Shown: positions 2,447 through 62,869 of the stretch, piece by piece
Layout of the letters: each line of letters starts with the position of its first letter
Position numbering within the stretch: the stretch's first letter is position 1
Assembly: GCF_029227855.1 (NCBI RefSeq)
Contig: NZ_CP074358.1
Direction: 5' to 3' (one strand)
Origin: Escherichia coli
GTDB taxonomy: Bacteria; Pseudomonadota; Gammaproteobacteria; Enterobacterales; Enterobacteriaceae
DNA length: 64,000 nucleotides
Position numbers and translations under genes: made by a program
The notes under the pieces: generated by a model
Told to the model about the DNA's origin: nothing
What the model saw: the letters and a program-made list of their open reading frames with translations, nothing else
Database searches by the model: none

Positions 2447-3538
2447 TTACAGATCTCCGTACAGGCAGCGCAGCCCGGTCAGGGCCTCCGCCAGCGGGCC
2501 TTCTTGACACCGCGTGGCGAGCTCCCGGACCAGCGTCTCAAAGGCCTCCGCCGGCATAAAAATCCGCAGGCCGTCTATCCCGAAGAAGCCCTCCGGCGTG
2601 ACGTTTCCGGGCGGGGAGAACATCACTCGCTCCCCCTGGTGACCGTGCGTCAGGGCTTCCGGATGCCGGGCATACAGCGTGAACAGGCCCAGCAGTTCGG
2701 ATAACGCTTCCCAGCCGTACGGCACCACGAAGTCCTGGCCGGTGATCAGCAGGTGCAGACGGGGTGTGGTGTACCAGGCCCCCGGGCGTTCTCCGGGGTG
2801 CTGGCCGTCAACGCGGATCTCCAGGCGCAGCGTGCCGGCCTCAATGGTTTCCGTGACGGCAGAAATAACCGGGCGCAGCTCCTGTGCCAGCGTTCTTGCC
2901 TGTTCTGTGTTCCAGTCCAGGCCGCGCAGCATCAACGGGAAAACAGCTTTCAGCCGCGGCAGGGTGAAGATTTCTGCCAGCACCGCGTCCGGCACCTCCG
3001 CCAGGCCAAAACAGTCGCTCTCGAGCGGACGCAGGAGGTGTTCGGCATACATCTGATCCACCACGGGGCGCAGCGCTGCCCGGAAGGCTTCAAACTCTTC
3101 CGTCCAGTTTTTCCCGGCCAGGCGGAAAATCCCCTTCAGGTAGTGACCGTCCACAGGGCGATCGTGCTCCACCTGCCAGGCCAGCAGGTTGCCAGTGATG
3201 TCCAGCAGCGTGTCCAGGGCCGGGAGTGTGGCCAGCCTATTATGCCCGCGCAGGAAGGCCTCCCTGACGTGAACCAGGACAAAGCGCAGTTCGTCGCGGG
3301 AGAGCGCTGACGTGCCGAAGGTCTGGCCCAGAATGATATGCCGGTACAGCTGCCGGACCGTGGCCTCCGGATCGGCAATGAGCTGAAAATACCCGTCACC
3401 GGGCGCGACCGTTTTCAGGCCGTCATCGAGGAAGCGTTCGGCTAGGGCGTTGACCGAAGTATTTTCCCGACCGGCACGCGTTTTCAGCGCCTCGATAAGT
3501 TTTTTGTGAAAACGCAGGTTAAGCTGGCTTAGCATCAT
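2447..3538 (-). CDS. pifC: 363 aa protein with N-terminal ribbon-helix-helix/Arc-like motif; probable PifC (RepC) autoregulator of the pif operon
   Basis: N-terminus LNLRFHKKLIEALKTRAGRENTSVNALAERFLDDGL resembles RHH DNA-binding domain; ~40 kDa; immediately upstream of and coupled to the KAP NTPase gene. Confidence 0.55.
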   Translation of the reverse strand: MMLSQLNLRFHKKLIEALKTRAGRENTSVNALAERFLDDGLKTVAPGDGYFQLIADPEATVRQLYRHIILGQTFGTSALSRDELRFVLVHVREAFLRGHNRLATLPALDTLLDITGNLLAWQVEHDRPVDGHYLKGIFRLAGKNWTEEFEAFRAALRPVVDQMYAEHLLRPLESDCFGLAEVPDAVLAEIFTLPRLKAVFPLMLRGLDWNTEQARTLAQELRPVISAVTETIEAGTLRLEIRVDGQHPGERPGAWYTTPRLHLLITGQDFVVPYGWEALSELLGLFTLYARHPEALTHGHQGERVMFSPPGNVTPEGFFGIDGLRIFMPAEAFETLVRELATRCQEGPLAEALTGLRCLYGDL

Positions 3539-4798: not shown

Positions 4799-5107
4799 GT
4801 GACTCACATGACAAAAACAGTATCAACCAGTAAAAAACCCCGTAAACAGCATTCGCCTGAATTTCGCAGTGAAGCCCTGAAGCTTGCTGAACGCATCGGT
4901 GTTACTGCCGCAGCCCGTGAACTCAGCCTGTATGAATCACAACTCTACAACTGGCGCAGTAAACAGCAAAATCAGCAGACGTCTTCTGAACGTGAACTGG
5001 AGATGTCTACCGAGATTGCACGTCTCAAACGCCAGCTGGCAGAACGGGATGAAGAGCTGGCTATCCTCCAAAAGGCCGCGACATACTTCGCGAAGCGCCT
5101 GAAATGA
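4799..5107 (+). CDS. IS3 OrfA (transposase N-terminal HTH part)
   Basis: 102 aa, helix-turn-helix and leucine-zipper-like C-terminus ([19 protein letters not shown]); inside the IS3 ends. Confidence 0.9.
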
Positions 5108-5970
5108 AGTATGTCTTTATTGAAAAACATCAGGCTGAGTTCAGCATCAAAGCAATGTGCCGCGTGCTCCGGGTGGCCCGCAGCGGCTGGTATACGTGGT
5201 GTCAGCGGCGGACAAGGATAAGCACGCGTCAGCAGTTCCGCCAACACTGCGACAGCGTTGTCCTCGCGGCTTTTACCCGGTCAAAACAGCGTTACGGTGC
5301 CCCACGCCTGACGGATGAACTGCGTGCTCAGGGTTACCCCTTTAACGTAAAAACCGTGGCGGCAAGCCTGCGCCGTCAGGGACTGAGGGCAAAGGCCTCC
5401 CGGAAGTTCAGCCCGGTCAGCTACCGCGCACACGGCCTGCCTGTGTCAGAAAATCTGTTGGAGCAGGATTTTTACGCCAGTGGCCCGAACCAGAAGTGGG
5501 CAGGAGACATCACGTACTTACGTACAGATGAAGGCTGGCTGTATCTGGCAGTGGTCATTGACCTGTGGTCACGTGCCGTTATTGGCTGGTCAATGTCGCC
5601 ACGCATGACGGCGCAACTGGCCTGCGATGCCCTGCAGATGGCGCTGTGGCGGCGTAAGAGGCCCCGGAACGTTATCGTTCACACGGACCGTGGAGGCCAG
5701 TACTGTTCAGCAGATTATCAGGCGCAACTGAAGCGGCATAATCTGCGTGGAAGTATGAGCGCAAAAGGTTGCTGCTACGATAATGCCTGCGTGGAAAGCT
5801 TCTTTCATTCGCTGAAAGTGGAATGTATCCATGGAGAACACTTTATCAGCCGGGAAATAATGCGGGCAACGGTGTTTAATTATATCGAATGTGATTACAA
5901 TCGGTGGCGGCGGCACAGTTGGTGTGGCGGCCTCAGTCCGGAACAATTTGAAAACAAGAACCTCGCTTAG
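5104..5970 (+). CDS. IS3 OrfB (transposase catalytic DDE part; expressed as OrfAB fusion by -1 frameshift)
   Basis: 288 aa with DDE/rve integrase core (WAGDITYL..., HTDRGGQY..., E in SFFHSLKVE). Confidence 0.9.
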
Positions 5971-17004: not shown

Positions 17005-17169
17005 TACAGGGGCAGGCGGTGGAGGCCGCCTGTCAGTCCGCGCGAAAACCCCTGGCAGGCTGACGCCTGCCGGAAGGGAAGCGGACCACGCTGGCGCGTC
17101 GCCCGTTACCCTTCCCGTCTGTGATGTGTCTGACTCAGGAGTGTTTCTTTCTTATGTTATGGAACTGTT

Positions 17170-17625
17170 CCTGATGTTGTTGTTCCTTTATCTGCTGCTC
17201 TGATTCTGACTACTGCAGTGTTGTTCTGTCTGCCGGGCGCACCTTCGGCTCCCGGCATCCCGGCAAAAGGCCGCCGGGATGTAAGGGGCAACGCCGTTTC
17301 GCGCACGCGCTCTCCGTCGTTGCGGCGGGTCCCTGCTCATTGCCTGCCGGTGCCACACACCCGTATGAGTCCCTGTCGCCGGGGGCTGATACAGCCACAA
17401 CCTGCCGCACTGACTGTCCAGGGTAAATGAACAGCCCACAAAATTTTTTACCCAAAACCCGGTAAAAAATTTTGCGTTCTGCCCAGGACAGGTGCGTCAG
17501 GCCGTGGCAGTGATGCCCCTTGCGGCGAAGGTTCTCAAACGGGTGAAGTTCATACCACAGGGAATACAGCAGCAGGTTCCCGCGAAACGTCAAAACCGCG
17601 GCTCCCGAAACTCAACGGGTGATGT
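17170..17625. repeat. Frpo/ssi-like structured non-coding repeat, copy A (short form)
   Basis: Shares 5' block ctgattctgactactgcagtgttg...cgggcgcaccttcggctcccggc and 3' block with copies B and C; lacks ~190 bp internal block; hairpin 17437-17476. Confidence 0.6.
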
Positions 17626-17853
17626 TCTTTAAAAATCAGGATTTATTTCAGGCTCCGGCAATACGCATTTATGTGTTCTGTCAGTCATCCGGCTGGCAGG
17701 TAATGAGAACGCAGGAACAGAAGGAGGAAAACACCGGAGAACGTCAGACGCAGATATGAAAAAAGCAGGTCAGGGACCTGCTTAATCCACACCGCAGAGA
17801 CTGCACGAACAGTCTTTACGGTTTCATTAATTAACGTCATAAGAGGCTAAATT

Positions 17854-18084
17854 ATGACAGTAAGTATTGTTTCACCTTCCGCAGCGGCTGTAAAGCCCCG
17901 CCGTCATCCCCGTTGCAGACGCGAAGACATCCCCGCGCCGGAAATTGACCCCGTGCTGAAAGCCTTCGGGCGACACATTGCCCGGAGTTTTCACCGGGGG
18001 CGTGGTGTACACATCCCCGCCATGAAAAACACGGCCTTCGGGCAGGTGCTCCGCACACTCGAACTGAAACGCGCTTTTAACTGA
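17854..18084 (+). CDS. Small basic hypothetical protein (76 aa)
   Basis: First ORF after repeat copy A; RBS agagg about 10 nt upstream. Confidence 0.35.
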   Translation: MTVSIVSPSAAAVKPRRHPRCRREDIPAPEIDPVLKAFGRHIARSFHRGRGVHIPAMKNTAFGQVLRTLELKRAFN

Positions 18085-20264: not shown

Positions 20265-20965
20265 GTTACTGATGATGTTGTTGTTCCTGCTACTGCTACT
20301 GCTACTGCTACTGCTACTGCTACTGTTCTTCTTTTTCCTGCTGCTCTGATTCTGACTACTGCAGTGTTGTCCTGTCTGCCGGGCGCACCTTCGGCTCCCG
20401 GCTGCCTGGCGGCATCCGGTCGTCAGGCCCGACTCCGACAGGCAGCTGCTGGCGCACCTGCCAGTCTCCGCCGAACCCGCTGGCGCGGTTTCGGGCTGTC
20501 GCTACGGTCCGATGCGTGAAAACCCCGGGCTTGCAGCGACCGTTCCGGTCGCGCCACCCTTGTCGCGCCGTGGCCTGCGCTCCTGGCATCCCGGCAAAAG
20601 GCCGCCGGGATGTAAGGGGCAACGCCGTTTCGCAAACCGCGCTTCACGTCGTTGCGGCGGGTCCCTGCCCGTTGTTCTGTCCGGTGCCATTCACCTGTTT
20701 AAGCCCCTGTCGCCGGGGGCAAAGACAGCCACAACCGTCTCCGCCAGTCCAGGGGTGAAATGTACATCCCGCAAAACTTTTTGCCCAAAAGCAGGCAAAA
20801 ACTTTTGCGGTCTGCCCCCGGACAGTCGTTTCCGTCCGTGGCAGTGATGCCCCTTGCGGCGAAGGTTCTCAAAAAGGTGATGGTGAATACCGGAGGGAAC
20901 AAAAGGCAGGTCCCCGCAAAACGTCAAAACCGCGGCTCCCGAAACTCAAAAGATGATGGGGGCTG
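20265..20965. repeat. Frpo/ssi-like structured non-coding repeat, copy B (long form), immediately upstream of ssb
   Basis: Near-identical to copy C over ~620 bp; hairpin ccgcaaaactttttgcc-caaaagca-ggcaaaaacttttgcgg at 20769-20810. Confidence 0.6.
20287..20325. repeat. Hexanucleotide microsatellite (CTGCTA)x6.5
   Basis: Six perfect tandem ctgcta units plus ctg, at the 5' edge of repeat copy B; absent from copies A and C. Confidence 0.9.
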
Positions 20966-20991
20966 AAAACATCAACAGAAGGAGGCACATC

Positions 20992-21827
<836 letters not shown>

Positions 21828-21892
21828 GAGAGGTGCCGGACGGGGACACGTCCGGCAGACAATCATTATTACCGTTTTGGGAGGTACTAACT

Positions 21893-23851
21893 ATGTCAGT
21901 TACAGAGTCTAAGGCAAAAACGGAGCGTAAATCCAGCCGTAAACCTGCAAAAACGCAGGAAACAGTCCTGTCTGCCCTGCTGGCGCAGACGGAGGAAGTG
22001 AGCGTGCCGCTGGCCTCACTGATTAAATCACCGCTGAATGTGCGCACGGTGCCGTATTCTGTGGAGTCCGTCAGCGAACTGGCTGAGTCCATTAAGGGCG
22101 TTGGCCTGTTGCAGAATCTGGTCGTGCATACCCTGCCTGGTGACCGTTACGGTGTCGCCGCAGGTGGTCGCCGACTGGCTGCACTCAACATGCTGGCAGA
22201 GCGTGGCATCCTTACGGCTGACTGGCCTGTACGCGTGAAGGTCATTCCGCAGGAACTGGCGACTGCCGCATCAATGACTGAAAACGGTCATCGTCGGGAT
22301 ATGCACCCTGCCGAACAGATTGCCGGATTCCGCGCAATGGCGCAGGAAGGCAAAACACCTGCGCAGACTGGCGACCTGCTGGGCTATTCACCCCGCCACG
22401 TCCAGCGAATGCTGAAACTGGCAGACCTTGCACCCGTCATCCTTGATGCGCTGGCAGAAGACCGCATCACCACCGAACACTGTCAGGCGCTGGCGCTGGA
22501 GAACGACACCGCGCGTCAGGTGCAGGTGTTTGAAGCCGCCTGCCAGTCAGGATGGGGCGGTAAACCGGATGTGCGGGTTATCCGCAACCTGATTACCGAA
22601 AGTGAAGTGGCGGTGGCTGGGAACAGTAAATTCCGCTTCGTGGGGGCTGATGCCTTCTCGCCAGACGAACTGCGCACCGATTTGTTCAGCGACGACGAGG
22701 GTGGCTATGTGGACTGCGTGGCGCTCGATGCCGCCCTGCTGGAAAAACTCCAGGCTGTCGCAGAGTTCCTTCGGGAAGCCGAAGGCTGGGGATGGTGTGC
22801 CGGACGCATGGAGCCTGTAGATGAGTGCCGTGAGGATGCCGGAACATACCGCTGTCTGCCGGAGCCGGAAGCGGTGCTGACGGAGGCGGAAGAAGAACGT
22901 CTGAACGAACTGATGGCTCGTTACGACGCGCTGGAAAACCAGTGTGAGGAATCTGACCTGCTGGAAGCAGAAATGAAGCTGATGCGCTGCATGGCGAAGG
23001 TCAGAGCGTGGACGCCGGAGATGCGTGCCGGAGGTGGAGTGGTGGTGTCCTGGCGTTATGGCAACGTGTGTGTCCAGCGTGGTGTGCAGTTGCGCAGTGA
23101 GGATGACGTGGCTGACGACGCTGACCGCACGGAACAGGTGCAGGAGAAAGCGTCAGTGGGGGGAATCAGTCTGCCACTGCTGACGAAAATGTCTTCCGAA
23201 CGCACGCTGGCAGTCCAGGCGGCGCTTATGCAGCAACCGGACAAATCTCTGGCACTGCTGGCATGGACGCTCTGCCTGAATGTGTTTGGCAGCGGAGCGT
23301 ACAGTAAACCGGCACAAATCAGCCTGGAATGTAAACATTATTCGCTGACCAGCGATGCGCCGTCAGGGAAGGAAGGTGTCGCATTCATGGCGCTGATGGC
23401 AGAAAAAGCCCGTCTTGCTGCCCTGTTACCGGAGGGATGGTCACGGGACATGACGACCTTCCTGTCACTCAGTCAGGAGGTGCTGTTATCCCTGCTCAGT
23501 TTCTGCACCGCATGCAGCCTTAACGGTGTCCAGACCCGTGAGTGTGGTCACACGTCACGCAGTCCGCTTGACTCGCTGGAAAGCGCTATCGGATTCCACA
23601 TGCGCGACTGGTGGCAGCCGACAAAAGCAAACTTCTTCGGACACCTGAAAAAGCCGCAGATTATCACAGCCCTGAATGAGGCAGGACTGTCCGGTGCCGC
23701 ACGGGACGCGGAGAAGATGAAGAAAGGTGATGCGGCTGAACATGCAGAGCACCATAAGAAAGACAACCGCTGGGTTCCAGGCTGGATGTGTGCACCACAT
23801 CCACAGACAGATGCCACTGAACGCACCGATAACCTGGCTGATGCCGCCTGA
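21893..23851 (+). CDS. ParB-like nuclease-domain protein (652 aa) of the leading region
   Basis: N-terminal ParB/Srx box (GLLQNLVV...GGRRLAAL); RBS gggagg; start moved to MSVTESKAK. Confidence 0.8.
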   Translation: MSVTESKAKTERKSSRKPAKTQETVLSALLAQTEEVSVPLASLIKSPLNVRTVPYSVESVSELAESIKGVGLLQNLVVHTLPGDRYGVAAGGRRLAALNMLAERGILTADWPVRVKVIPQELATAASMTENGHRRDMHPAEQIAGFRAMAQEGKTPAQTGDLLGYSPRHVQRMLKLADLAPVILDALAEDRITTEHCQALALENDTARQVQVFEAACQSGWGGKPDVRVIRNLITESEVAVAGNSKFRFVGADAFSPDELRTDLFSDDEGGYVDCVALDAALLEKLQAVAEFLREAEGWGWCAGRMEPVDECREDAGTYRCLPEPEAVLTEAEEERLNELMARYDALENQCEESDLLEAEMKLMRCMAKVRAWTPEMRAGGGVVVSWRYGNVCVQRGVQLRSEDDVADDADRTEQVQEKASVGGISLPLLTKMSSERTLAVQAALMQQPDKSLALLAWTLCLNVFGSGAYSKPAQISLECKHYSLTSDAPSGKEGVAFMALMAEKARLAALLPEGWSRDMTTFLSLSQEVLLSLLSFCTACSLNGVQTRECGHTSRSPLDSLESAIGFHMRDWWQPTKANFFGHLKKPQIITALNEAGLSGAARDAEKMKKGDAAEHAEHHKKDNRWVPGWMCAPHPQTDATERTDNLADAA

Positions 23852-23905
23852 TGAACAACCACACCGCCCCGCCGGAGACGGGGCGGCAGCAAGGGAGATA
23901 TCGTG

Positions 23906-24340
23906 ATGAAAACTGAACTGACCCTGAATGCCCTGCAGTCCATGAACGCACAGGAATATGAAGATATCCGTGCTGCGGGAAGCGATATGCGCCGTAATCT
24001 CACTCACGAGGTGATGCGTGAAGTGGACGCACCGGCTAACTGGATGATGAATGGCGAGTATGGCAGTGAGTTCGGGGGCTTTTTCCCCGTCCAGGTTCGT
24101 TTCACGCCAGCCCACGAACGTTTCCACCTGGCGTTATGTTCACCGGGCGATGTCTCTCAGGTCTGGGTGCTGGTTCTGGTGAATGCCGGTGGTGAGCCGT
24201 TTGCGGTGGTTCAGGTACAGCGGCGGTTTGCACCGGAAGCCGTCAGCCATTCACTGGCACTGGCGGCGTCACTGGACGCGCAGGGGTACAGCGTCAGTGA
24301 CATCATCCATATCCTGATGGCGGAAGGAGGTCAGGCATGA
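23906..24340 (+). CDS. psiB: Plasmid SOS inhibition protein B
   Basis: 144 aa matching recalled PsiB ([25 protein letters not shown]...). Confidence 0.9.
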
Positions 24341-25056
24341 GCGCACGTTCACAGGCACTGGTTCCTCTCAGCACAGAGCAACAGGCCGCATGGCGGGCGG
24401 TGGCGGAGACCGAAAAACGCCGCCATCAGGGTAACACGCTGGCTGAATATCCGTATGCGGGGGCGTTTTTCCGCTGTCTGAACGGAAGCCGCAGGATATC
24501 GCTGTCTGACCTGCGATTTTTCATGCCGTCCCTGACCGCAGAAGAACTGCACGGCAACCGTCTTCAGTGGCTGTATGCCATCGATGTGCTGATTGAAACA
24601 CAGGGCGAGGTCTGCCTCCTTCCCCTTCCCGGTGATGCAGCAGAGCGCTTGTTCCCGTCGGTGCGGTTTCGTGTCAGGGAACGCAGTCGCCATAAATCCG
24701 CGCTGGTCATGCAGAAGTACAGCCGCCAGCAGGCGAGGGAGGCAGAGCAGAAAGCCCGTGCGTACCAGGCGCTGGTCGCTCAGGCTGAAATCGAACTGGC
24801 ATTCCATTCGCCGGAAACAGTCGGAAGCTGGCATGCACGCTGGAGTGACCGGGTGGCAGAGCATGACCTGGAAACCCTGTTCTGGCAGTGGGGCGAGCGT
24901 TTTCCGTCACTGGCCGGAATGGAACGCTGGCAGTGGCAGGATATGCCATTCTGGCAGGTCATCGCAGAGGCTGGTATGGCGGCAAGGGTGGTTGGTCATG
25001 CTGTTCGTGAGATGGAGCGGTGGATGGTGCCGAACAAACTCCGGGAGGCAGCGTGA
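24337..25056 (+). CDS. psiA: Plasmid SOS inhibition protein A
   Basis: 239 aa, coupled to psiB (ATGA overlap), matches recalled PsiA. Confidence 0.9.
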
Positions 25057-25249
25057 TGCGGCAACAATCACACGGATTTCCCGTGAACGGTCTGAATGAG
25101 CGGATTATTTTCAGGGAAAGTGAGTGTGGTCAGCGTGCAGGTATATGGGCTATGATGTGCCCGGCGCTTGAGGCTTTCTGCCTCATGACGTGAAGGTGGT
25201 TTGTTGCCGTGTTGTGTGGCAGAAAGAAGATAGCCCCGTAGTAAGTTAA

Positions 25250-25320
25250 TTTTCATTAACCACCACGAGGCATCCCTATGTCTAGTCCACATCAGGATAG
25301 CCTCTTACCGCGCTTTGCGC
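25250..25320 (-). ncRNA. sok: Candidate Sok-like antisense RNA of the hok/mok locus (approximate coordinates)
   Basis: Inferred from hok/sok architecture; region antisense to the mok translation-initiation region. Confidence 0.35.
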
Positions 25321-25490
25321 AAGGAGAAGAAGGCCATGAAACTACCACGAAGTTCCCTTGTCTGGTGTGTGTTGATCGTGTGTCTCACACTGTTGATATT
25401 CACTTATCTGACACGAAAATCGCTGTGCGAGATTCGTTACAGAGACGGACACAGGGAGGTGGCGGCTTTCATGGCTTACGAATCCGGTAA
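25278..25490 (+). CDS. mok: Mok-like overlapping reading frame (modulator of hok translation)
   Basis: 70-codon ORF overlapping hok in another frame, as in hok/sok loci. Confidence 0.5.
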
Positions 25491-25494
25491 GTAG
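25336..25494 (+). CDS. hok: Hok-family membrane toxin (52 aa)
   Basis: [52 protein letters not shown]; not in the ORF track because <60 aa; RBS aggagaag. Confidence 0.9.
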
Positions 25495-25744
25495 CAACCT
25501 GGAGGCGGGCGCAGGCCCGCCTTTTCAGGACTGATGCTGGTCTGACTACTGAAGCGCCTTTATAAAGGGGCTGCTGGTTCGCCGGTAGCCCCTTTCTCCT
25601 TGCTGATGTTGTACGGGCATGAACAACCTGACTTCAGGAAGGTCGTTTCCCTTCAGGAACGGGGATGAACGCGCGCCTGCGGCGCCCGTTCTTTTCCCCC
25701 GCCTTCTCTGGTTATGGCCTGTCAGAAATCACATCACCTTCCCT

Positions 25745-26395
25745 GTGATTATTCTCTTTTTCTTCCTGCTCTGATTCTGACTACTGCAGTGTTGTCCTGT
25801 CTGCCGGGCGCACCTTCGGCTCCCGGCTGCCTGGCGGCATCCGGTCGTCAGGCCCGACTCCGACAGGCAGCTGCTGGCGCACCTGCCAGTCTCCGCCGAA
25901 CCCGCTGGCGCGGTTTCGGGCTGTCGCTACGGTCCGATGCGTGAAAACCCCGGGCTTGCAGCGACCGTTCCGGTCGCGCCGCCTCTGTCGCGCCGTGGCC
26001 TGCGCTCCTGGCATCCCGGCAAAAGGCCGCCGGGATGTAAGGGGCAACGCCGTTTCGCAAACCGCGCTTCACGTCGTTGCGGCGGGTCCCTGCCCGTTGT
26101 TCTGTCCGGTGCCATTCACCTGTTTAAGCCCCTGTCGCCGGGGGCTGATACAGCCACAACCTGCCGCACTGACTGTCCAGGGTAAATGAACAGCCCGCAA
26201 AACTTTTTGCCCAGAAGCAGGCAAAAACTTTTGCGGTCTGCCCCCGGACAGTCGTTTCCGGCCGTGGCAGTGATGCCCCATGCGGCGAAGGTTCTCAAAC
26301 AGGTGATGGTGAATACCGGAGGGAACAAAAGGCAGGTCCCCGCAAAACGTCAAAACCGCGGCTCCCGAAACTCAACAGATGATGGGGGCTGAAAA
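25745..26395. repeat. Frpo/ssi-like structured non-coding repeat, copy C (long form)
   Basis: Near-identical to copy B; hairpin 26195-26236; 3' part resembles copy A (ctgatacagccacaacctgccgcactgactgtccagggtaaatgaacagccc). Confidence 0.6.
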
Positions 26396-26416
26396 CCAGA
26401 GAGAGGAGAAAGCAGG

Positions 26417-26823: not shown

Positions 26824-27588
26824 ATGCGATTAGCTTCCCGTTTTGGTCGGTATAATTCCATCCGCCGTGAACGTCCTTTAACGGATGATGAATTAATGCA
26901 GTTCGTGCCTTCGGTATTTTCCGGTGATAAACCTGAGTCCCGGAGTGAACGTTATACGTATATTCCAACAATCAATATCATCAATAAGTTACGTGATGAA
27001 GGTTTCCAGCCATTCTTTGCCTGTCAGAGTCGGGTTCGTGATTTGGGACGTCGCGAATACAGTAAACATATGTTACGTCTTCGCAGGGAAGGGCATATTA
27101 ACGGACAGGAAGTTCCTGAAATTATCCTGCTTAATTCACATGATGGTTCATCCAGTTATCAGATGATCCCCGGAATTTTTCGTTTTGTCTGCACAAATGG
27201 CCTGGTGTGCGGAAATAATTTTGGCGAAATCCGCGTTCCACATAAAGGTGATATTGTCGGGCAGGTTATCGAGGGAGCGTATGAAGTGCTCGGTGTCTTT
27301 GATAAGGTCACTGATAATATGGAGGCGATGAAAGAAATTCATCTTAACAGTGACGAGCAACATTTATTTGGCAGAGCTGCACTGATGGTCAGGTATGAAG
27401 ATGAAAATAAAACGCCAGTGACACCTGAACAGATAATTATTCCCCGTCGTCGGGAAGACAAACAGAACGATCTCTGGACAACCTGGCAGCGGGTTCAGGA
27501 GAATATGATAAAAGGTGGATTATCGGGGCGAAGTGCCTCCGGAAAAATACCAGGACAAGAGCCATTACAGGTATTGATGGTGATATAA
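26824..27588 (+). CDS. Conserved leading-region protein (254 aa), oriT-proximal
   Basis: RBS aaaggag; no catalytic motif recognised. Confidence 0.6.
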   Translation: MRLASRFGRYNSIRRERPLTDDELMQFVPSVFSGDKPESRSERYTYIPTINIINKLRDEGFQPFFACQSRVRDLGRREYSKHMLRLRREGHINGQEVPEIILLNSHDGSSSYQMIPGIFRFVCTNGLVCGNNFGEIRVPHKGDIVGQVIEGAYEVLGVFDKVTDNMEAMKEIHLNSDEQHLFGRAALMVRYEDENKTPVTPEQIIIPRRREDKQNDLWTTWQRVQENMIKGGLSGRSASGKIPGQEPLQVLMVI

Positions 27589-27940: not shown

Positions 27941-28450
27941 TTAATTGTTCTGCACGCTGTTAATTTCCGGAAGTGATTTCTTCGTGGCCGGAAGCCGGAT
28001 ACCTTTACTGCTTTTTATCCCGGTATAAATCCGGTAAACATCTGATGCGTAGGCAAGACGTCTCTGGTTCTGGCGTTCGGTTTTCCTGAATCCGGCATTG
28101 TATGCACCAACGGCCTCCCAGGTGACGCCCCATTTTTTAAATGCTATTGCCAGATAATAAGCACCGGTATAAATGTTCATGCAGGGATCTGTTGTCAGAT
28201 GTTCTGGCTTAATTCCGTAGCGGGCCAGTTCGTTAAAATGCTGGGAATCTACCTGCATCAGTCCGCTGCCATATCCCGTTACCGGATTAATACCGATGGC
28301 ATTAACCCGGTAACGGGATTCTTGCCATGATATTGCTCTCAGTAAATCAGGATCTATTTTGTAATCCCGGCCTGCAAGATCAAAGCAATCAGTGGCCTGG
28401 CAGATCTCATTTATAAACATCAGGCAGATGGCTAACATCCATTTTTTCAT
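27941..28450 (-). CDS. Lytic transglycosylase (F plasmid gene X / orf169 / P19 family), 169 aa
   Basis: Signal peptide [19 protein letters not shown]; SLT motifs ISWQESRY and GLMQV; start moved to MKKW (ATG 28450). Confidence 0.85.
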
Positions 28451-28499
28451 TTTTCCACCTCTGGTGACTTTATCCGTAAATAATTTAACCCACTCCACA

Positions 28500-28860
28500 A
28501 AAAGGCTCAACAGGTTGGTGGTTCTCACCACCAAAAGCACCACACCCCACGCAAAAACAAGTTTTTGCTGATTTTTCTTTATAAATAGAGAGTTATGAAA
28601 AATTAGTTTCTCTTACTCTCTTTATGATATTTAAAAAAGCGGTGTCGGCGCGGCTACAACAACGCGCCGACACCGCTTTGTAGGGGTGGTGCTGACTATT
28701 TTTATAAAAAACATTATTTTATATTAGGGGTGCTGCTAGCGGCGCGGTGTGTTTTTTTATAGGATACCGCTAGGGGCGCTGCTAGCGGTGCGTCCCTGTT
28801 TGCATTATGAATTTTAGTGTTTCGAAATTAACTTTATTTTATGTTCAAAAAAGGTAATCT
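28500..28860. other. oriT: Origin of transfer (oriT) with F-type nic region and inverted/direct repeats
   Basis: Bottom strand carries ttgcgtggggtgtggtgcttttggtggtgagaacc (F-like nic sequence, nick near 28540/28541); 14-bp inverted repeat gcggtgtcggcgcg/cgcgccgacaccgc at 28639-28676; direct repeats gctgctagcgg(c/t)gcg. Confidence 0.75.
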
Positions 28861-28863
28861 CTA

Positions 28864-29247
28864 ATGGCTAAGGTGAACCTGTATATCAGCAATGATGCCT
28901 ATGAAAAAATAAATGCGATTATTGAGAAGCGTCGACAGGAAGGGGCAAGGGAAAAAGATGTCAGTTTTTCAGCAACAGCTTCAATGCTTCTTGAACTGGG
29001 GCTTCGTGTACATGAGGCTCAGATGGAGCGTAAAGAGTCTGCATTTAATCAGACTGAGTTTAATAAATTGCTTCTTGAATGCGTTGTAAAAACACAATCA
29101 TCAGTAGCGAAAATTTTGGGTATTGAGTCTCTCAGTCCTCATGTCTCCGGAAATCCAAAGTTTGAATATGCCAATATGGTTGAAGATATCAGGGAGAAGG
29201 TATCATCTGAGATGGAACGATTTTTTCCAAAAAATGATGATGAATAA
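28864..29247 (+). CDS. traM: TraM relaxosome accessory protein
   Basis: 127 aa matching recalled F TraM (MAKVNLYISNDAYEKINAIIEKRRQEGAREKDVSFSATASMLLELGL...). Confidence 0.95.
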   Translation: MAKVNLYISNDAYEKINAIIEKRRQEGAREKDVSFSATASMLLELGLRVHEAQMERKESAFNQTEFNKLLLECVVKTQSSVAKILGIESLSPHVSGNPKFEYANMVEDIREKVSSEMERFFPKNDDE

Positions 29248-29354
29248 AAGAAATTTGACTTCGTTCAAATATCAGAGTTTTTATGATTTAAAAAGGTGAC
29301 AGTACGAAAGATAATTAGTATATTAATTACGTGGTTAATGCCACGTTAAAATTT

Positions 29355-29435
29355 GAATTTGAAAATCGCCGATGCAGGGAGTTCTCTCCTCCCTGCATCG
29401 ACTGTCCATAGAATCCTTTGTGAGGAGGTTCCTAT
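29355..29435 (-). ncRNA. finP: FinP antisense RNA (approximate), complementary to the traJ leader
   Basis: 12-bp perfect hairpin cgatgcagggag-ttctctc-ctccctgcatcg at 29370-29400 in the traJ 5' UTR; architecture of FinOP systems. Confidence 0.5.
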
Positions 29436-30123
29436 GTATCCGATGGATCGTATTCAACAAAAACATGCTCGTCAAATAGATCTGCTGGAAAATCTGACGG
29501 CAGTTATTCAGGATTATCCAAATCCAGCCTGTATCAGGGACGAAACTGGAAAATTTATTTTTTGCAATACGCTGTTTCATGAGTCATTTCTTACACAAGA
29601 TCAAAGTGCTGAAAAATGGCTTCTGTCGCAGAGAGATTTTTGTGAATTGATCTCTGTCACAGAGATGGAAGCATACAGGAATGAGCATACGCATCTTAAT
29701 CTTGTAGAGGATGTTTTTATTCAGAACAGATTCTGGACAATATCTGTCCAGTCATTTCTTAATGGACACAGAAATATCATTCTGTGGCAATTTTATGATG
29801 CTGCTCATGTTCGTCATAAAGACAGTTATAATCAAAAAACGATTGTCAGTGATGATATCAGAAATATAATCAGAAGAATGAGTGATGATTCTTCTGTATC
29901 ATCATATGTAAATGATGTCTTTTACTTATATAGCACCGGAATCAGTCATAATGCTATAGCAAGAATATTAAACATATCCATCTCCACATCAAAGAAACAC
30001 GCGTCTCTGATATGCGACTACTTCTCTGTTTCTAATAAAGATGAGTTAATCATCTTACTCTACAATAAAAAGTTTATTCATTATTTGTACGAGAAGGCTA
30101 TGTGTATCATAAATACGCGTTAA
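29434..30123 (+). CDS. traJ: TraJ transfer activator (229 aa)
   Basis: ATG 29434 with gaggagg RBS; AT-rich gene; position between traM and traY. Confidence 0.85.
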   Translation: MYPMDRIQQKHARQIDLLENLTAVIQDYPNPACIRDETGKFIFCNTLFHESFLTQDQSAEKWLLSQRDFCELISVTEMEAYRNEHTHLNLVEDVFIQNRFWTISVQSFLNGHRNIILWQFYDAAHVRHKDSYNQKTIVSDDIRNIIRRMSDDSSVSSYVNDVFYLYSTGISHNAIARILNISISTSKKHASLICDYFSVSNKDELIILLYNKKFIHYLYEKAMCIINTR

Positions 30124-47183: not shown

Positions 47184-50002
47184 ATGAAGTTTATGTGATT
47201 GCCGGTGGTGAGTGGTTGCGGAATAACCTGAACGCCATTGCCGCCTTTATGGGAACCAGGACGTGGGATTCCATTGAAAAAATTGCGCTCACATTGTCTG
47301 TTCTCGCGGTGGCCGTGATGTGGGTACAGCGGCACAACGTGATGGATTTGCTGGGCTGGGTGGCCGTGTTTGTGCTTATCAGCCTGCTGGTTAATGTCCG
47401 CACATCGGTGCAGATTATTGATAACAGTGACCTGGTCAAAGTTCACCGGGTGGATAATGTACCGGTCGGACTGGCGATGCCACTTTCACTGACGACCCGT
47501 ATCGGGCATGCAATGGTGGCCAGTTACGAGATGATCTTCACGCAACCGGACAGTGTCACCTACAGCAAAACGGGGATGCTGTTTGGCGCAGAACTGGTAT
47601 CAAAAAGCACCGACTTTTTGTCCCGCAATCCGGAAATCGCCAATCTTTTCCAGGATTATGTGCAGAACTGCGTGATGGGGGATATTTACCTGAACCACAA
47701 ATACACGCTGGAGGAGCTGATGGCCTCCGCTGATCCCTACACGCTGATTTTTTCCCGCCCCAGTCCGCTACGGGGCGTTTATGACAGCAATAATAATTTC
47801 GTGACCTGTAAGGACGCGTCGGTTTCGCTGAAAGACAAGCTGAATCTGGATACACAGAGTGGCGGAAAAACCTGGCATTATTATGCCCAGCAGCTATTTG
47901 GTGGACGCCCTGATCCGAACCTGTTGTTCAGTACGCTGATTGGCGACAGTTACAGTTACTTCTATGGCTCAAGTAAATCAGCCAGCCAGATCATCCGCCA
48001 GAATGTCACCATCAATGCGCTGAAGGAGGGGATCACCAGTTATGCCGCGCGTAATGGTGATTCAGCCAGCCTGGTGAATCTGGCCACCACGTCATCGATG
48101 GAGAAGCAACGTCTGGCACATGTCTCCATCGGTCATGTGGCGATGCGGACACTGCCCATGACGCAGACCATCCTGACGGGGATCGCCATCGGTATTTTCC
48201 CGCTTCTGGTACTGGCGGTTGTCTTCAACAAACTGACGCTATCCGTCCTGAAAGGCTATGTGTTTGCCCTGATGTGGTTGCAGTCATGGCCAATGTTGTA
48301 CGCCATTCTGAACAGCGCCATGACATTTTATGCGAAGCAGAATGGTGCACCGGTGGTGCTCTCGGAAATTTCACAGATACAGCTGAAATACTCCGATCTG
48401 GCTTCCACTGCCGGGTATCTTTCCATGATGATCCCGCCATTATCCTGGATGATGGTCAGGGGACTCGGGGCCGGATTTTCCAGTGTGTACAGCCATTTCG
48501 CTTCCTCTGCTATCAGCCCGACTGCCAGTGCGGCAGGTAGTGTGGTTGACGGTAATTACTCCTACGGCAACATGCAGACGGAAAACGTGAACGGCTTCAG
48601 CTGGAGCACCAACAGCACCACGTCGTTTGGTCAGATGATGTACCAGACCGGCAGTGGCGCAACCGCCACACAGACCCGTGACGGTAATATGGTGATGGAT
48701 GCGAGCGGGGCGATGTCCCGTTTACCGGTCGGTATCAATGCAACGCGTCAGATTGCGGCGGCACAACAGGAAATGGCCCGGGAGGCGTCGAACAGAGCAG
48801 AAAGCGCCCTGCATGGGTTCAGCAGCAGTATTGCCAGTGCCTGGAACTCGCTCAGTCAGTTTGGTTCTAACCGGGGGAGCAGTGATTCTGTCACCGGTGG
48901 TGCTGACAGCACGATGAGCGCACAGGACTCCATGATGGCCAGCCGTATGCGCAGCGCAGTGGAAAGCTATGCGAAGGCGCATAATATCAGTAATGAGCAG
49001 GCGACAAGAGAACTGGCATCAAGAAGTACGAGAGGTTCTGCGGGGATGTATGGCGATGCTCATGCTGAATGGGGGGTTAAACCTAAAATTCTTGGTGTTG
49101 GTGGTGGCGTAGGTGTTAGAGGTGGTGGTCGGGCAAGTATTGACTGGAGTGATGAGGATGCGCATCAGGCCAGCAGTGGTTCACGGGCCAGCCATGATGC
49201 TCGCCATGATATCGATGCCAGGGCTACACAAGACTTTAAAGAGGCCAGCGATTACTTTACCAGTCGCAAGGTCAGTGAATCCGGCAGCCATACGGACAAT
49301 AATGCCGATTCCCGTGTGGACCAGCTGTCTGCAGCCCTGAACTCAGCAAAACAGAGTTACGACCAGTACACGACGAATATGACCCGCAGCCATGAATATG
49401 CTGAAATGGCATCCCGTACTGAAAGCATGAGTGGGCAGATGAGTGAAGACCTGTCGCAACAGTTTGCACAGTATGTGATGAAACACGCGCCGCAGGATGC
49501 CGAAGCTATTCTGACAAACACCAGTTCACCGGAGATTGCAGAACGCCGTCGGGCTATGGCGTGGTCTTTCGTTCAGGAACAGGTGCAGCCTGGTGTTGAT
49601 AATGCCTGGCGTGAATCCCGTGGGGACATCGGTAAAGGAATGGAGAGCGTACCTTCGGGGGGGGGCAGCCAGGATATTATTGCTGATTATCAGGGGCATC
49701 AGGCCATTATTGAGCAAAGAACGCAGGACAGTAATATCCGTAATGATGTAAAACATCAGGTTGATAATATGGTCACAGAATACCGAGGCAATATCGGAGA
49801 TACTCAGAGCAGCATACGTGGCGAAGAAAATATTGTAGGAAGACAGTATTCTGAACTACAAAATCACCATAAAACAGAGGCATTATCTCAGAATAATAAA
49901 TATAATGAAGAAAAATCGGGTCAGGAAAGAATGCCCGGGGCTGACAGTCCACAGGAACTGATGAAAAGAGCAAAGGAGTATCAGGATAAGCACAAGCAAT
50001 AA
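47180..50002 (+). CDS. traG: TraG (F-type, VirB6-like N-terminal domain plus mating-pair stabilisation/entry-exclusion C-terminal domain)
   Basis: 940 aa; polytopic N-terminal half, hydrophilic C-terminal half. Confidence 0.95.
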   Translation: MNEVYVIAGGEWLRNNLNAIAAFMGTRTWDSIEKIALTLSVLAVAVMWVQRHNVMDLLGWVAVFVLISLLVNVRTSVQIIDNSDLVKVHRVDNVPVGLAMPLSLTTRIGHAMVASYEMIFTQPDSVTYSKTGMLFGAELVSKSTDFLSRNPEIANLFQDYVQNCVMGDIYLNHKYTLEELMASADPYTLIFSRPSPLRGVYDSNNNFVTCKDASVSLKDKLNLDTQSGGKTWHYYAQQLFGGRPDPNLLFSTLIGDSYSYFYGSSKSASQIIRQNVTINALKEGITSYAARNGDSASLVNLATTSSMEKQRLAHVSIGHVAMRTLPMTQTILTGIAIGIFPLLVLAVVFNKLTLSVLKGYVFALMWLQSWPMLYAILNSAMTFYAKQNGAPVVLSEISQIQLKYSDLASTAGYLSMMIPPLSWMMVRGLGAGFSSVYSHFASSAISPTASAAGSVVDGNYSYGNMQTENVNGFSWSTNSTTSFGQMMYQTGSGATATQTRDGNMVMDASGAMSRLPVGINATRQIAAAQQEMAREASNRAESALHGFSSSIASAWNSLSQFGSNRGSSDSVTGGADSTMSAQDSMMASRMRSAVESYAKAHNISNEQATRELASRSTRGSAGMYGDAHAEWGVKPKILGVGGGVGVRGGGRASIDWSDEDAHQASSGSRASHDARHDIDARATQDFKEASDYFTSRKVSESGSHTDNNADSRVDQLSAALNSAKQSYDQYTTNMTRSHEYAEMASRTESMSGQMSEDLSQQFAQYVMKHAPQDAEAILTNTSSPEIAERRRAMAWSFVQEQVQPGVDNAWRESRGDIGKGMESVPSGGGSQDIIADYQGHQAIIEQRTQDSNIRNDVKHQVDNMVTEYRGNIGDTQSSIRGEENIVGRQYSELQNHHKTEALSQNNKYNEEKSGQERMPGADSPQELMKRAKEYQDKHKQ

Positions 50003-53725: not shown

Positions 53726-56700
53726 TGATGAGTATCGCGCAGGTCAGATCGGCCGGAAGTGCCGGTAACTATTATACCGACAAGGATAATTACTATGTGC
53801 TGGGCAGCATGGGAGAACGCTGGGCCGGCAGGGGGGCTGAACAGCTGGGACTGCAGGGCAGTGTCGATAAGGATGTTTTTACCCGTCTTCTGGAGGGAAG
53901 GCTGCCGGACGGAGCGGATCTAAGCCGCATGCAGGATGGCAGTAACAGGCATCGTCCCGGCTACGACCTGACCTTCTCCGCCCCCAAAAGTGTCTCCATG
54001 ATGGCCATGTTAGGTGGCGATAAGCGCCTGATTGATGCACATAACCAGGCCGTGAACTTTGCTGTTCGTCAGGTGGAGGCGCTGGCCTCCACACGGGTGA
54101 TGACGGACGGACAGTCAGAAACGGTGCTGACCGGTAATCTGGTGATGGCACTGTTTAACCACGACACCAGTCGCGATCAGGAACCACAGTTACACACGCA
54201 TGCGGTGGTGGCTAATGTCACGCAGCATAACGGTGAGTGGAAGACACTGAGCAGTGACAAAGTGGGGAAAACGGGGTTCATTGAGAATGTGTACGCTAAT
54301 CAGATTGCCTTTGGCAGGCTCTATCGGGAAAAACTGAAAGAGCAGGTTGAGGCGCTGGGCTATGAAACCGAAGTGGTGGGTAAGCACGGTATGTGGGAGA
54401 TGCCGGGCGTACCGGTGGAGGCCTTTTCCGGACGCTCACAGGCTATCCGAGAGGCCGTCGGGGAAGATGCCTCGCTGAAATCCCGGGATGTGGCGGCACT
54501 GGATACGCGAAAATCCAAACAGCACGTCGATCCTGAAGTCAGAATGGCTGAATGGATGCAGACGCTGAAGGAAACCGGGTTCGACATCCGGGCATATCGT
54601 GACGCGGCGGATCAGCGTGCGGAGACCCGCACGCAGGCGCCCGGGGCTGTTTCACTGGAGGGGCCGGATGTGCAGCAGGCGGTGACACAGGCGATTGCCG
54701 GATTAAGTGAACGAAAAGTGCAGTTTACGTACACGGACGTGCTGGCCAGAACAGTCGGCATACTGCCGCCGGAAAATGGTGTGATTGAACGGGCACGCGC
54801 CGGTATCGATGAGGCCATCAGCCGTGAGCAGCTCATCCCCCTCGATCGTGAGAAGGGGCTGTTCACGTCCGGGATTCATGTGCTCGATGAGCTGTCAGTC
54901 CGGGCACTCAGTCGTGACATCATGAAACAGAACCGGGTGACCGTACATCCGGAGAAAAGTGTCCCCCGGACGGCCGGTTACAGCGATGCGGTCAGTGTTT
55001 TGGCACAGGATCGCCCGTCGCTGGCTATTGTGTCCGGGCAGGGCGGTGCAGCCGGGCAGCGTGAGCGGGTGGCGGAGCTGGTCATGATGGCCCGGGAGCA
55101 GGGGCGGGAGGTGCAGATTATCGCCGCTGACCGTCGCTCGCAGATGAACCTGAAGCAGGATGAACGGCTGTCCGGTGAGCTGATAACCGGACGTCGTCAG
55201 CTGCAGGAGGGCATGGCCTTCACGCCGGGCAATACTGTTATCGTTGACCAGGGCGAAAAACTCTCCCTGAAAGAGACGTTAACCCTGCTGGACGGTGCTG
55301 CACGTCATAACGTACAGGTCCTGATAACCGACAGCGGGCAGCGAACCGGTACAGGCAGTGCACTGATGGCCATGAAAGATGCCGGGGTGAACACATATCG
55401 CTGGCAGGGGGGAGAACAGCGGCCGGCCACCATCATCAGTGAACCGGACCGTAATGTCCGCTATGCCCGGCTGGCAGGAGATTTTGCGGCCAGCGTGAAA
55501 GCCGGAGAAGAGAACGTGGCACAGGTCAGCGGGGTACGGGAACAGGCCATACTGACACAGGCCATTCGCAGTGAGCTGAAAACACAGGGCGTGCTCGGAC
55601 GCCCGGAGGTAACCATGACCGCCCTGTCGCCGGTCTGGCTGGACAGCCGGAGCCGTTATCTGCGGGATATGTACCGTCCGGGGATGGTGATGGAGCAGTG
55701 GAACCCGGAGACACGCAGTCATGACCGCTATGTTATCGACCGGGTGACGGCGCAGAGTCACAGCCTGACCCTGCGGGATGCGCAGGGTGAAACGCAGGTG
55801 GTGCGTATTTCCTCCCTGGACAGCAGCTGGTCGCTGTTCCGGCCGGAAAAAATGCCGGTGGCAGACGGCGAGCGACTGAGGGTGACAGGGAAAATTCCCG
55901 GACTCCGCGTCTCCGGCGGTGACCGCCTGCAGGTGGCATCCGTCAGTGAAGATGCGATGACGGTTGTTGTGCCGGGGCGGGCTGAACCGGCCTCCCTGCC
56001 TGTGAGCGATTCACCATTCATGGCACTGAAGCTGGAGAACGGCTGGGTGGAAACGCCAGGGCATTCCGTCAGCGACAGTGCGACGGTTTTTGCCTCCGTC
56101 ACACAGATGGCAATGGACAATGCCACCCTGAACGGTCTGGCCCGCAGTGGTCGTGATGTCCGGCTGTATTCCTCACTGGATGAAACCCGTACTGCGGAAA
56201 AACTTGCCCGCCATCCCTCCTTTACGGTGGTTTCTGAGCAGATAAAGGCGCGTGCCGGTGAGACATTGCTGGAAACCGCTATCAGTCTGCAGAAAGCCGG
56301 ACTTCACACGCCGGCACAGCAGGCCATTCATCTGGCCCTTTCTGTGGTGGAAAGTAAAAACCTGGCCTTCAGCATGGTGGACCTGCTGACAGAGGCGAAG
56401 TCGTTTGCTGCAGAAGGAACCAGTTTTGTTGACCTGGGACGGGAAATCAATACGCAGATAAAACGCGGTGATTTACTGCATGTGGATGTGGCAAAAGGCT
56501 ATGGCACAGACCTGCTGGTTTCCCGTGCGTCGTATGAGGCAGAAAAGAGCATTCTTCGCCATATTCTCGAAGGTAAGGAGGCGGTCACGCCGCTGATGGA
56601 GAGAGTACCTGGCGAACTCATGGAGAAACTGACATCAGGACAGCGTGCCGCCACCCGCATGATACTGGAAACGTCCGACCGTTTCACGGTGGTGCAGGGC

Positions 56701-60376: not shown

Positions 60377-61233
60377 AAAAAAGCCTCCATCAGAGAGAGG
60401 AGGCAGGGAAATAAGGCTTAAAAGGAAATAACTTCCGTACCCGAAAGGAAGCCAGTCCACTGAATTATTTACCACAATAATACTGACGACTAAAAGGGAG
60501 GGGCAGAAAAATGAATGGATTCAGAAACAGTTCACGGAACGGTCAGGTCTGGCGCTGGCAGCGTGCCGGAAGCCGGGCCGTTATTCTGGAGGTCAGTGGA
60601 CGCTGGATGGATGCGGCAGAAGCATGGCGACGGGCTGCCGGTGTTGCGCCCCGGACAGACTGGCGGCAGTTTGCCCGAAAAAGGGCTGCACACTGCCACC
60701 GGCGCTGCCGGGGAAGGGTGTAACGAAAAAAGCAGCCTTCATTACTCCTGGAGTCAGAAGGCTGAATAATGCATGAGATTTACTTTTTTAATCTCCGGTC
60801 GGGTAGTATGACCGGACAACTCTGAGTAGCACAGAGTTTTTTTCCGTATTAAGTCGTGATTTTATATTTTGTGATTTATTTCACAAAATAAGGTGTTATT
60901 CAATGTGTGCTGCAATATTCAGGATGCCTGAAATACAGGTGCCATTTATTTGATATGGAGAATAACATGAGGGAATATATTCCACTGGTATTATTTATCT
61001 TTTCATAGCCGGTATTGTCTGCAGATATTTATGGGCAGGTTGTTCGTGTACTGGGCCAGCAGGAAAGTCTGTGCAGAAGCTTACGGTTTGAATAAGTTGA
61101 ACCCCATAAGACTCTGATTAATATAATTTGTGGCACACAGATACTTGCGGGAAAAGTGTTTCGCACTGAATCTTAACTGGAAATGTAAACTATTTTTAAC
61201 ACCCCCAAAATCCTTTTGGGGAACAACTCATGC

Positions 61234-61551: not shown

Positions 61552-61888
61552 ACCTTATTGGGTGTATTAAAAACAGTAGGCTGCCAAAGTCTTAAACAAG
61601 TTTCAATTCTCCATGACTGCTCAACATCAGACAGAGGGAATTCCCATTCTGGACCAGCGGGAGCATACGAACAATAATTTACGGTTTCGCGCTATAGCTG
61701 GCTCAAGTTAGGTTGGACCCTGAATCTCCAGACAACCAATATCTGATCGCGCCAGTGGTGGCAGTTATTAAGCAACAGGGAATGTAGTATTATCGCGGCG
61801 GGTGTCTGAGCCTTTCTGGTTCAGGCAAGACGCAGGTACCAGAAATGCGAAGACCCCACTTGTTAATCCATTAACTCGTGAGGTCTGC

Positions 61889-62095
61889 ATGAAGTACCTT
61901 AACACTACTGATTGTAGCCTCTTCCTTGCAGAGAGGTCAAAGTTTATGACGAAATATGCCCTTATCGGGTTGCTCGCCGTGTGCGCCACGGTGTTGTGTT
62001 TTTCACTGATATTCAGGGAACGGTTATGTGAGCTGAATATTCACAGAGGAAATACAGTGGTGCAGGTAACTCTGGCCTACGAAGCACGGAAGTAA
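61889..62095 (+). CDS. srnB: SrnB/Hok-family membrane toxin (68-aa frame; Hok-like core from internal Met at 61946)
   Basis: MKYLNTTDCSLFLAERSKFMTKYALIGLLAVCATVLCFSLIFRERLCELNIHRGNTVVQVTLAYEARK; hairpin cggggac-ggaa-gtccccg downstream at ~62104-62128. Confidence 0.85.
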   Translation: MKYLNTTDCSLFLAERSKFMTKYALIGLLAVCATVLCFSLIFRERLCELNIHRGNTVVQVTLAYEARK

Positions 62096-62378: not shown

Positions 62379-62636
62379 ATGTCGCAGACAGAAAATGCAG
62401 TGACTTCCTCATCAGGCACCAAGCGTACATACCGGAAAGGTAACCCTGTTCCGGCCAGAGAGAGGCAAAGAGCTTCTCTGGCTCGCAGAAGCAACACTCA
62501 TAAGGCTTTTCATGCGGTTATTCAGGCCCGGTTAAAAGACAGGCTGAGTGAACTGGCGGATGAGGAAGGTATTACTCAGGCGCAGATGCTTGAAAAACTG
62601 ATTGAATCAGAGCTGAAACGCAGAGCGACTTCGTAA
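62379..62636 (+). CDS. repA2: RepA2/CopB copy-number repressor of IncFII replicons
   Basis: 85 aa, [11 protein letters not shown]... with GITQAQ helix; gaggagg RBS. Confidence 0.85.
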
Positions 62637-62714: not shown

Positions 62715-62810
62715 TAAGGTGGCAGGGAACTGGTTCTGATGTGGATTTACAGGAGCCAGAAAAGTGAAAACCCCGATAATCTTCTCTAACTTTGGCGAGT
62801 CCAGAAAGAT
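62715..62810 (-). ncRNA. copA: CopA-like antisense RNA (approximate), targeting the repA1 leader (CopT)
   Basis: Located between copB and tap; sense strand carries tttggcg loop motif as in CopT; coordinates inferred. Confidence 0.4.
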
Positions 62811-62869
62811 TACCGGGGCTAACAAGAAACTGCATAGAAGCTGTTGCTCTATGCGGGGAGTATAGTTAT

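Follow-up and report, generated by a model that had tools for sequence, protein, structure and literature searches.

What lies directly behind psiA in this plasmid: a working toxin-antitoxin locus, a decayed copy of one, or short reading frames that arose by chance? The DNA that we analysed, referred to here as the window, is a stretch of 64,000 nucleotides from Escherichia coli (contig NZ_CP074358.1, RefSeq assembly GCF_029227855.1), and a preliminary description made from its letters had assigned positions 25250-25494 to a type I toxin-antitoxin system of the hok/mok/sok type. hok/sok is the founding example of type I toxin-antitoxin systems. Our analysis indicates that the window almost certainly carries an intact type I toxin-antitoxin locus, hok/mok/sok (parB) of the R1 type. 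The plasmid that bears it in its leading region is conjugative and F-like (MOBF/MPF_F, RepFIIA-type). The locus is of an already known kind, real but ordinary, and it is the same as the studied R1 copy wherever the two can be checked; what is added here is the exact placement of Sok and of the regulatory boxes. The value as a discovery is small, and the practical use lies in annotation.

Both protein-coding frames hold up exactly as first described. The hok toxin gene occupies 25336..25494 on the plus strand, from an ATG at 25336 to a TAG at 25492-25494, and its 52 codons translate into the 52 residues given in the preliminary description. It is overlapped, in another phase, by the 70-codon mok reading frame at 25278..25490 (+), with its TAA stop at 25488-25490. 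Family models recognize both products: Hok matches Pfam HOK_GEF (PF01848) with E=1.2e-21 and 76.5 bits (cut-off 22) and the NCBIfam Hok family NF007279 with 126.4 bits (cut-off 73), residues 1-52 of 52 being covered, while Mok reaches 151.6 bits (cut-off 110) against the NCBIfam equivalog NF010277, ‘modulator of post-segregation killing protein’, and 140 bits against Pfam DUF5431. Look-ups of the exact sequences in UniRef return ‘Protein Hok’ (representative HOK_ECOLX) for the 52-residue protein and ‘Protein FlmC homolog’ (representative FLMC2_ECOLX) for the 70-residue one. Chance reading frames are ruled out, as the Pfam and NCBIfam scores lie far above the curated cut-offs. The hok Shine-Dalgarno sequence, AGGAG, can be read at 25322..25326 (+).

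How far does the locus extend beyond these frames? The span originally proposed lies inside the locus but is too short at both ends: on the 5' side it lacks the hok promoter and the initial 87 nt of the hok mRNA, and on the 3' side all of the regulatory region. The functional hok/mok/sok unit covers about 25127-25560. This 3' limit depends on the length of the full-length, translationally inert hok mRNA, which we take to be 398 nt as in the papers of the Gerdes laboratory and which would accordingly run from 25163 to 25560 on the plus strand. The other RNA ends come from R1 oligonucleotides, used for in vitro synthesis of R1 Sok and mature hok mRNA and as a northern probe (Faridani et al. 2006, PMC1635323). 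All six published oligonucleotides can be placed on the window with 0 mismatches. The R1 hok mRNA 5' primer, after removal of its T7 promoter, lies at 25163-25181 (+) and sets the mRNA 5' end at 25163; the R1 primer for the 3' end of mature hok lies at 25510-25523 (-) and sets the processed 3' end at 25523, so that the processed hok mRNA, 25163-25523, is 361 nt long. The 55-nt R1 northern probe falls at 25440-25494 (-), in the 3' part of the hok frame. With +1 set at 25163, the window can also be read in the R1 numbering of Le Rhun et al. (PMC9841398), and the eight R1 nucleotides quoted there, G4, C5, T6, A70, G71, C72, G105 and A106, all agree.

Upstream of the mRNA start, a consensus scan returns a candidate hok promoter at 25127..25156 (+), with a -35 TGGTCA, an 18-nt spacer and a -10 TATGAT (9/12 consensus matches). 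Its -10 ends 7 nt ahead of 25163, and in the alignment the candidate is also kept in R100, in F and in three further F-type plasmids. At the other end, a perfect 8-bp inverted repeat at 25503..25523 (+) forms the terminal stem-loop of the processed, translatable mRNA and coincides with the 3' end set by the R1 primer; in R1, substitutions in this stem-loop of the mature 3' end lead to loss of function (PMC9841398). Beyond the full-length 3' end, a hairpin with 14-nt arms at 25564..25595 (+), directly 3' of the last regulatory box and followed by CTCCTT, is probably a transcription-end structure, and it is also present in the aligned F-type loci. No terminator was detected in the interval between psiA and hok. 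Two further Rfam matches close to the locus, at 24903-24989 (Betaproteobacteria-1, E = 0.54) and 25570-25589 (L25 leader, E = 0.93), fall under their gathering scores and were taken as chance.

The antisense RNA, which the preliminary description had postulated but not seen, can now be placed at the level of sequence. The two R1 Sok template primers match exactly, at 25267-25287 (-) and 25224-25245 (+), and fix both ends of a putative 64-nt Sok RNA at 25224..25287 on the minus strand, reading from 25287 to 25224. R1 Sok is likewise 64 nt long and has a tail-plus-hairpin shape (PMC1635323). The predicted fold of the window's Sok (-26.5 kcal/mol, z = -5.6) has a centroid with a free 5' tail and a hairpin, the single-stranded tail measuring about 11-12 nt before the stem-loop begins. 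Sok is complementary to nt 62-125 of the hok mRNA, a stretch that includes the mok Shine-Dalgarno sequence (nt 105-108) and the mok AUG (nt 116-118), whereas the hok Shine-Dalgarno sequence and AUG lie outside it. Because Sok covers the translation start of mok and not that of hok, control of hok would be indirect, via mok, as published.

A Sok promoter can be read by eye at 25294..25322 (-), with a -35 TTGCGC (25322 to 25317), a 17-nt spacer and a -10 TATCCT (25299 to 25294), and the Sok start at 25287 lies 7 nt downstream of this -10. The consensus promoter scan did not report it, because its 7/12 matches to the sigma-70 consensus fall under the threshold of the tool. Despite this poor match, the R1 Sok promoter is described as strong in the literature (PMC1635323). 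The proposed -10 overlaps one of the regulatory boxes of the mRNA, the downstream complementary box (dcb), in agreement with Le Rhun et al., where a Sok-promoter mutation falls in this same box (PMC9841398). An Rfam match to RF01794 at 25162-25338 scores 88.9 bits (gathering score 59; full model, 1-157). Although this family bears the name ‘sok antitoxin’, it matches both Hok-family loci of the window in the toxin-sense orientation, each match extending from +1 of the mRNA up to the AUG of the toxin gene. What the family detects is thus the hok leader, and the orientation of a match should not be taken for that of Sok.

The regulatory boxes known from R1 can all be given coordinates on the plus strand. 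The translational activator element tac lies at the mRNA 5' end (25163..25172) and forms an inverted repeat with the fold-back inhibitory element fbi near the 3' end (25549..25558). In the predicted fold, nt 1-7 pair with nt 390-396 at ensemble probabilities of 0.98-1.0, and the pairing is part of the minimum-free-energy structure. Substitution of G4, C5 and T6 in R1 tac abolishes toxicity (PMC9841398). The AAGCGCC core of fbi is unchanged in 7/7 aligned loci, an IncI2 plasmid included. Immediately 5' of fbi, the window differs by 2 nt from other plasmids: at 25545-25546 it reads GACT-ACTGAAGCGCC, as against GACTGCACTGAAGCGCC in R100, in F and in three more plasmids of the F type; the variant of the window is common to the plasmids that match it with 100% identity. 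Further inside the leader, the ucb or anti-Shine-Dalgarno box AGCCCCG (mRNA nt 70-76, beginning with A70, G71 and C72; 25232..25238) is predicted to pair with the region of the mok Shine-Dalgarno sequence GAGG (nt 105-108, with G105 and A106; 25267..25270), which itself lies within the stretch complementary to Sok. The dcb, GAUAGCCUC, lies at 25296..25304 as part of an inverted repeat, and is the alternative partner of the mok Shine-Dalgarno region (PMC9841398); its segment GCCTCTTAC is unchanged across the seven aligned loci.

These boxes fold as the R1 scheme would have it, with one qualification. The full-length RNA (25163-25560, 398 nt) has a predicted free energy of -175.9 kcal/mol, with z = -8.25 against shuffled sequences. 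In this fold the mok Shine-Dalgarno sequence is sequestered by ucb, and the hok Shine-Dalgarno sequence and AUG form base pairs with the hok coding sequence; partial pairing of the hok Shine-Dalgarno sequence with the coding region is found in the predicted folds of both the 398-nt and the 361-nt RNA. For the energetics, the published tac/ucb stem was forced in both RNAs by constrained folding: this ‘open’ stem comes at a price of 12.2 kcal/mol for the full-length RNA versus 0.2 kcal/mol for the 361-nt RNA, a modelled difference that supports the published view that trimming of the 3' end activates the mRNA. Without the constraint, however, the minimum-free-energy fold of the 361-nt RNA keeps the closed hairpin between ucb and the Shine-Dalgarno sequence and does not adopt the published open form. 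Across the seven aligned loci, tac, ucb, the mok Shine-Dalgarno sequence, dcb and fbi are invariant and the Sok recognition segment is variable, a pattern that fits conserved folding elements combined with variable antisense recognition. Covariation of tac with fbi is uninformative on these seven loci, because both boxes are invariant.

How would these elements work together? The sequence elements, their coordinates and their predicted energetics belong to this DNA; as regards transcription, RNA half-lives and killing, we infer from sequence identity with R1 that the locus behaves as its relative does. The weak promoter at 25127-25156 would give rise to a stable hok mRNA of full length, with 25163 as its first nucleotide. 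In this form, the 5' tac element and the 3' fbi element would be paired and ucb would lock the mok Shine-Dalgarno sequence, so that neither ribosomes nor Sok could bind. Slow exonucleolytic trimming from the 3' end to the stem-loop ending at 25523 would then strip off fbi, whereupon the mRNA 5' end could pair with ucb and release both the mok Shine-Dalgarno sequence and the Sok target. As long as a cell carries the plasmid, the unstable 64-nt Sok would bind over the mok Shine-Dalgarno sequence and AUG, blocking translation of mok and, with it, the coupled translation of hok; the duplex would be cut by RNase III. After plasmid loss, Sok would decay first, and the stored hok mRNA would be translated; the 52-residue Hok would damage the inner membrane and cause cell death, that is, post-segregational killing. 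For R1, the stable toxin mRNA, the unstable antitoxin RNA and the killing of plasmid-free segregants are experimental findings (PMC1635323, PMC9841398).

The comparison with known plasmids bears on which allele this is, and on whether it is still intact. With R1 (parB, GenBank X05813, T1TAdb TA07123) the window shares the exact HOK_ECOLX sequence of Hok, the six oligonucleotides, the eight numbered positions, the 64-nt Sok, the 361-nt processed mRNA and the plan of tac, fbi, ucb and dcb, with 0 differences at the checkable positions, about 55% of the 398-nt transcript lying outside the published oligonucleotides and quoted positions. R100 (NR1, NC_002134) carries the locus in the same place, in the order psiB-psiA-hok, with Sok and the Sok-target region identical to the window; the C-terminal 41 residues of its Hok have the same protein accession as in p1658/97, itself 100% identical to the window. 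Over the 521 bp it shows a handful of differences: the few substitutions lie outside the frames, and at the 2-nt site described above R100 has two extra nucleotides (GC) 5' of fbi. In F (NC_002483), flmA/flmB/flmC take up the same place in the leading region, and the promoter, tac, ucb, mok Shine-Dalgarno sequence, dcb and fbi are the same, but the antisense recognition segment (window 25225-25290) has diverged by substitutions and two small indels, so that the sequence of the antisense RNA differs in F. F Hok differs at one residue, position 39, which is Tyr (TAC) in F and His (CAC) here and in R100. srnB of F and pndA of R483 and R16 belong to the same family and follow the same regulatory plan, and the window contains one locus of this type as well.

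Could the locus nevertheless be an F-type flmA/B/C allele with the antisense specificity of FlmB? Its position after psiA is that of flm in F, and its Mok sequence carries the name ‘FlmC homolog’. However, in Sok and its target the window is identical to R100 and unlike F, which makes it the R1/R100 allele and not the F allele; residue 39 of Hok goes with R100, and the R1 Sok primers match exactly. We regard an flm allele as barely conceivable, and the alignment with R100 and F led us to reject it. Hardly more credible is a decayed or silent copy that no longer kills. Decayed or silent copies do occur among the hok loci of the E. coli K-12 chromosome, where there are several, yet nothing specific speaks for decay here apart from the 2-nt difference beside fbi relative to R100 and F. 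Against it, both frames and all regulatory boxes are intact, every checkable position equals R1, and there is neither insertion nor truncation relative to F or R100. With the 521 bp around the locus as query, matches were found in at least 5000 plasmid records, and no fewer than 1459 of these reach 99% identity, mostly conjugative plasmids of Escherichia, Klebsiella, Salmonella and Shigella; the same 521-bp sequence recurs with 100% identity in numerous conjugative plasmids across several genera, which also argues against a decayed copy. The intact R1-type locus remains the reading that we adopt, and what can still be debated is the benefit for which it is kept in this place.

The surroundings bear on that benefit. 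The term ‘leading region’, used from the start for this part of the window, is right, since the gene order is the same in F and R100: ssb (20953-21531, +), a parB-like gene (21833-23851), psiB (23903-24340, +) and psiA (24337-25056, +) lie upstream of hok, and a DUF932 gene (26824-27588), an SLT-type transglycosylase gene (27941-28543, -), an ORF in the traM position (28864-29247) and the traJ 5'UTR/FinP found by Rfam (29329-29440) lie downstream. Some 3 kb separate the hok locus from the traM/traJ side of the putative oriT, and hok has the same orientation as ssb, psiB and psiA. A direct repeat is present in three copies of about 0.5-0.66 kb, at 17164-17636, 20310-20970 and 25735-26396; the latter two share 97-98% identity at a distance of 5425 bp, and the first has diverged further. 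The many ORFs listed within the repeats (e.g. 25714-25944 and 25937-26185) probably do not represent genes. Between the two close copies, a 5.4-kb segment holds ssb, the parB-like gene, psiB, psiA and hok. F has matching repeats, one ahead of ssb and one ahead of the first ORF past flm, and to these sites Couturier et al. 2023 assign the single-strand promoters Frpo2 and Frpo1.

This arrangement makes it tempting to see the selected role of the same locus mainly in guarding the 5.4-kb ssb-psiB-psiA segment, or in early establishment or competition after conjugative entry. Deletion of ssb through hok by recombination between the bracketing repeats is conceivable, the repeats correspond to Frpo2/Frpo1 of F, and exactly such a safeguarding of the segment against recombinational loss has been suggested for flmAB in F (Couturier et al. 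2023). Samuel et al. 2024 report, moreover, that leading regions are enriched for toxin-antitoxin genes and that the T-strand encodes these genes, and the establishment idea is repeated in a 2026 survey preprint on Hok. We consider such a role a possibility worth keeping in mind, though not the one to bet on: in the literature searched it stands as a proposal, and R1 parB stabilizes unrelated replicons whatever its position, according to literature cited by Samuel et al. 2024. It also concerns the selective benefit and not the mechanism, so that it is compatible with ordinary post-segregational killing. A more speculative extension, which we think rather improbable, starts from gene orientation and the same two studies (Samuel et al. 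2024; Couturier et al. 2023). An Frpo-type single-strand promoter repeat precedes ssb, psiB and psiA, and since the T-strand templates hok-sense RNA, while a template for Sok would exist only after synthesis of the complementary strand, placement in the leading region could create a strand asymmetry at conjugative entry, with the toxin message made from single-stranded DNA before the antitoxin. If so, the slow-maturing, self-locked hok mRNA would be a safeguard as well as a post-segregational timer; alternatively, the locus could act as an ‘abort’ device, killing recipients in which conversion from single- to double-stranded DNA or establishment has failed. A study of expression early in conjugation (PMC12672017) does not mention hok, flm or Sok.

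For annotation, the locus illustrates how easily a toxin of the Hok type is missed or given a wrong start, and mok and Sok usually go unannotated altogether. The hok frame has 52 codons, or 59 if counted from an upstream TTG, and so lies under the usual listing threshold of 60 residues. At identical loci, RefSeq/PGAP lists Hok only as an N-terminally truncated form of 41 residues (e.g. WP_001372321.1), corresponding to window 25369-25494: it starts at the GTG of codon 12 and drops the first 11 residues. This form is found at 3270-3395, 5010-5135 and 47400-47525 in three annotated records (L001, L002 and L003, respectively). The characterized R1 Hok has 52 residues. mok is absent from the RefSeq gene tables of these three records, which may be incomplete.

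The locus behind psiA is not the only member of its family in the window. At 61800-62095 (+) the window has another Hok-family locus, one of the srnB/pnd type: RF01794 matches at 61800-61956 with 95.1 bits, and an ORF at 61802-62095 contains a 68-residue SrnB' frame and a 49-residue toxin, MTKYALIGLLAVCATVLCFSLIFRERLCELNIHRGNTVVQVTLAYEARK, that scores 37.3 bits against Pfam HOK_GEF; one matching record names it ‘Protein SrnB’. It differs from the locus at 25.3 kb in its toxin and in its place, which is beside the RepFIIA replicon and not in the leading region: a RepB/CopB-like ORF (62379-62636) follows after about 300 bp, with the CopA RNA at 62762-62852. The two loci show no detectable nucleotide similarity to each other (best E = 1.6), on which ground we rejected cross-talk between them; the plasmid thus has two independent type I addiction modules, and the locus at 25.3 kb helps to mark the window as an F-like conjugative plasmid carrying such a pair. 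Rfam also finds antisense RNAs originally described from plasmid pHK01, all on the minus strand and all over their gathering scores: AS-pc01 (17760-17859), just after the first Frpo-like repeat copy, AS-traG (47899-47984), AS-traI (56574-56650) and AS-pc02 (60620-60802).
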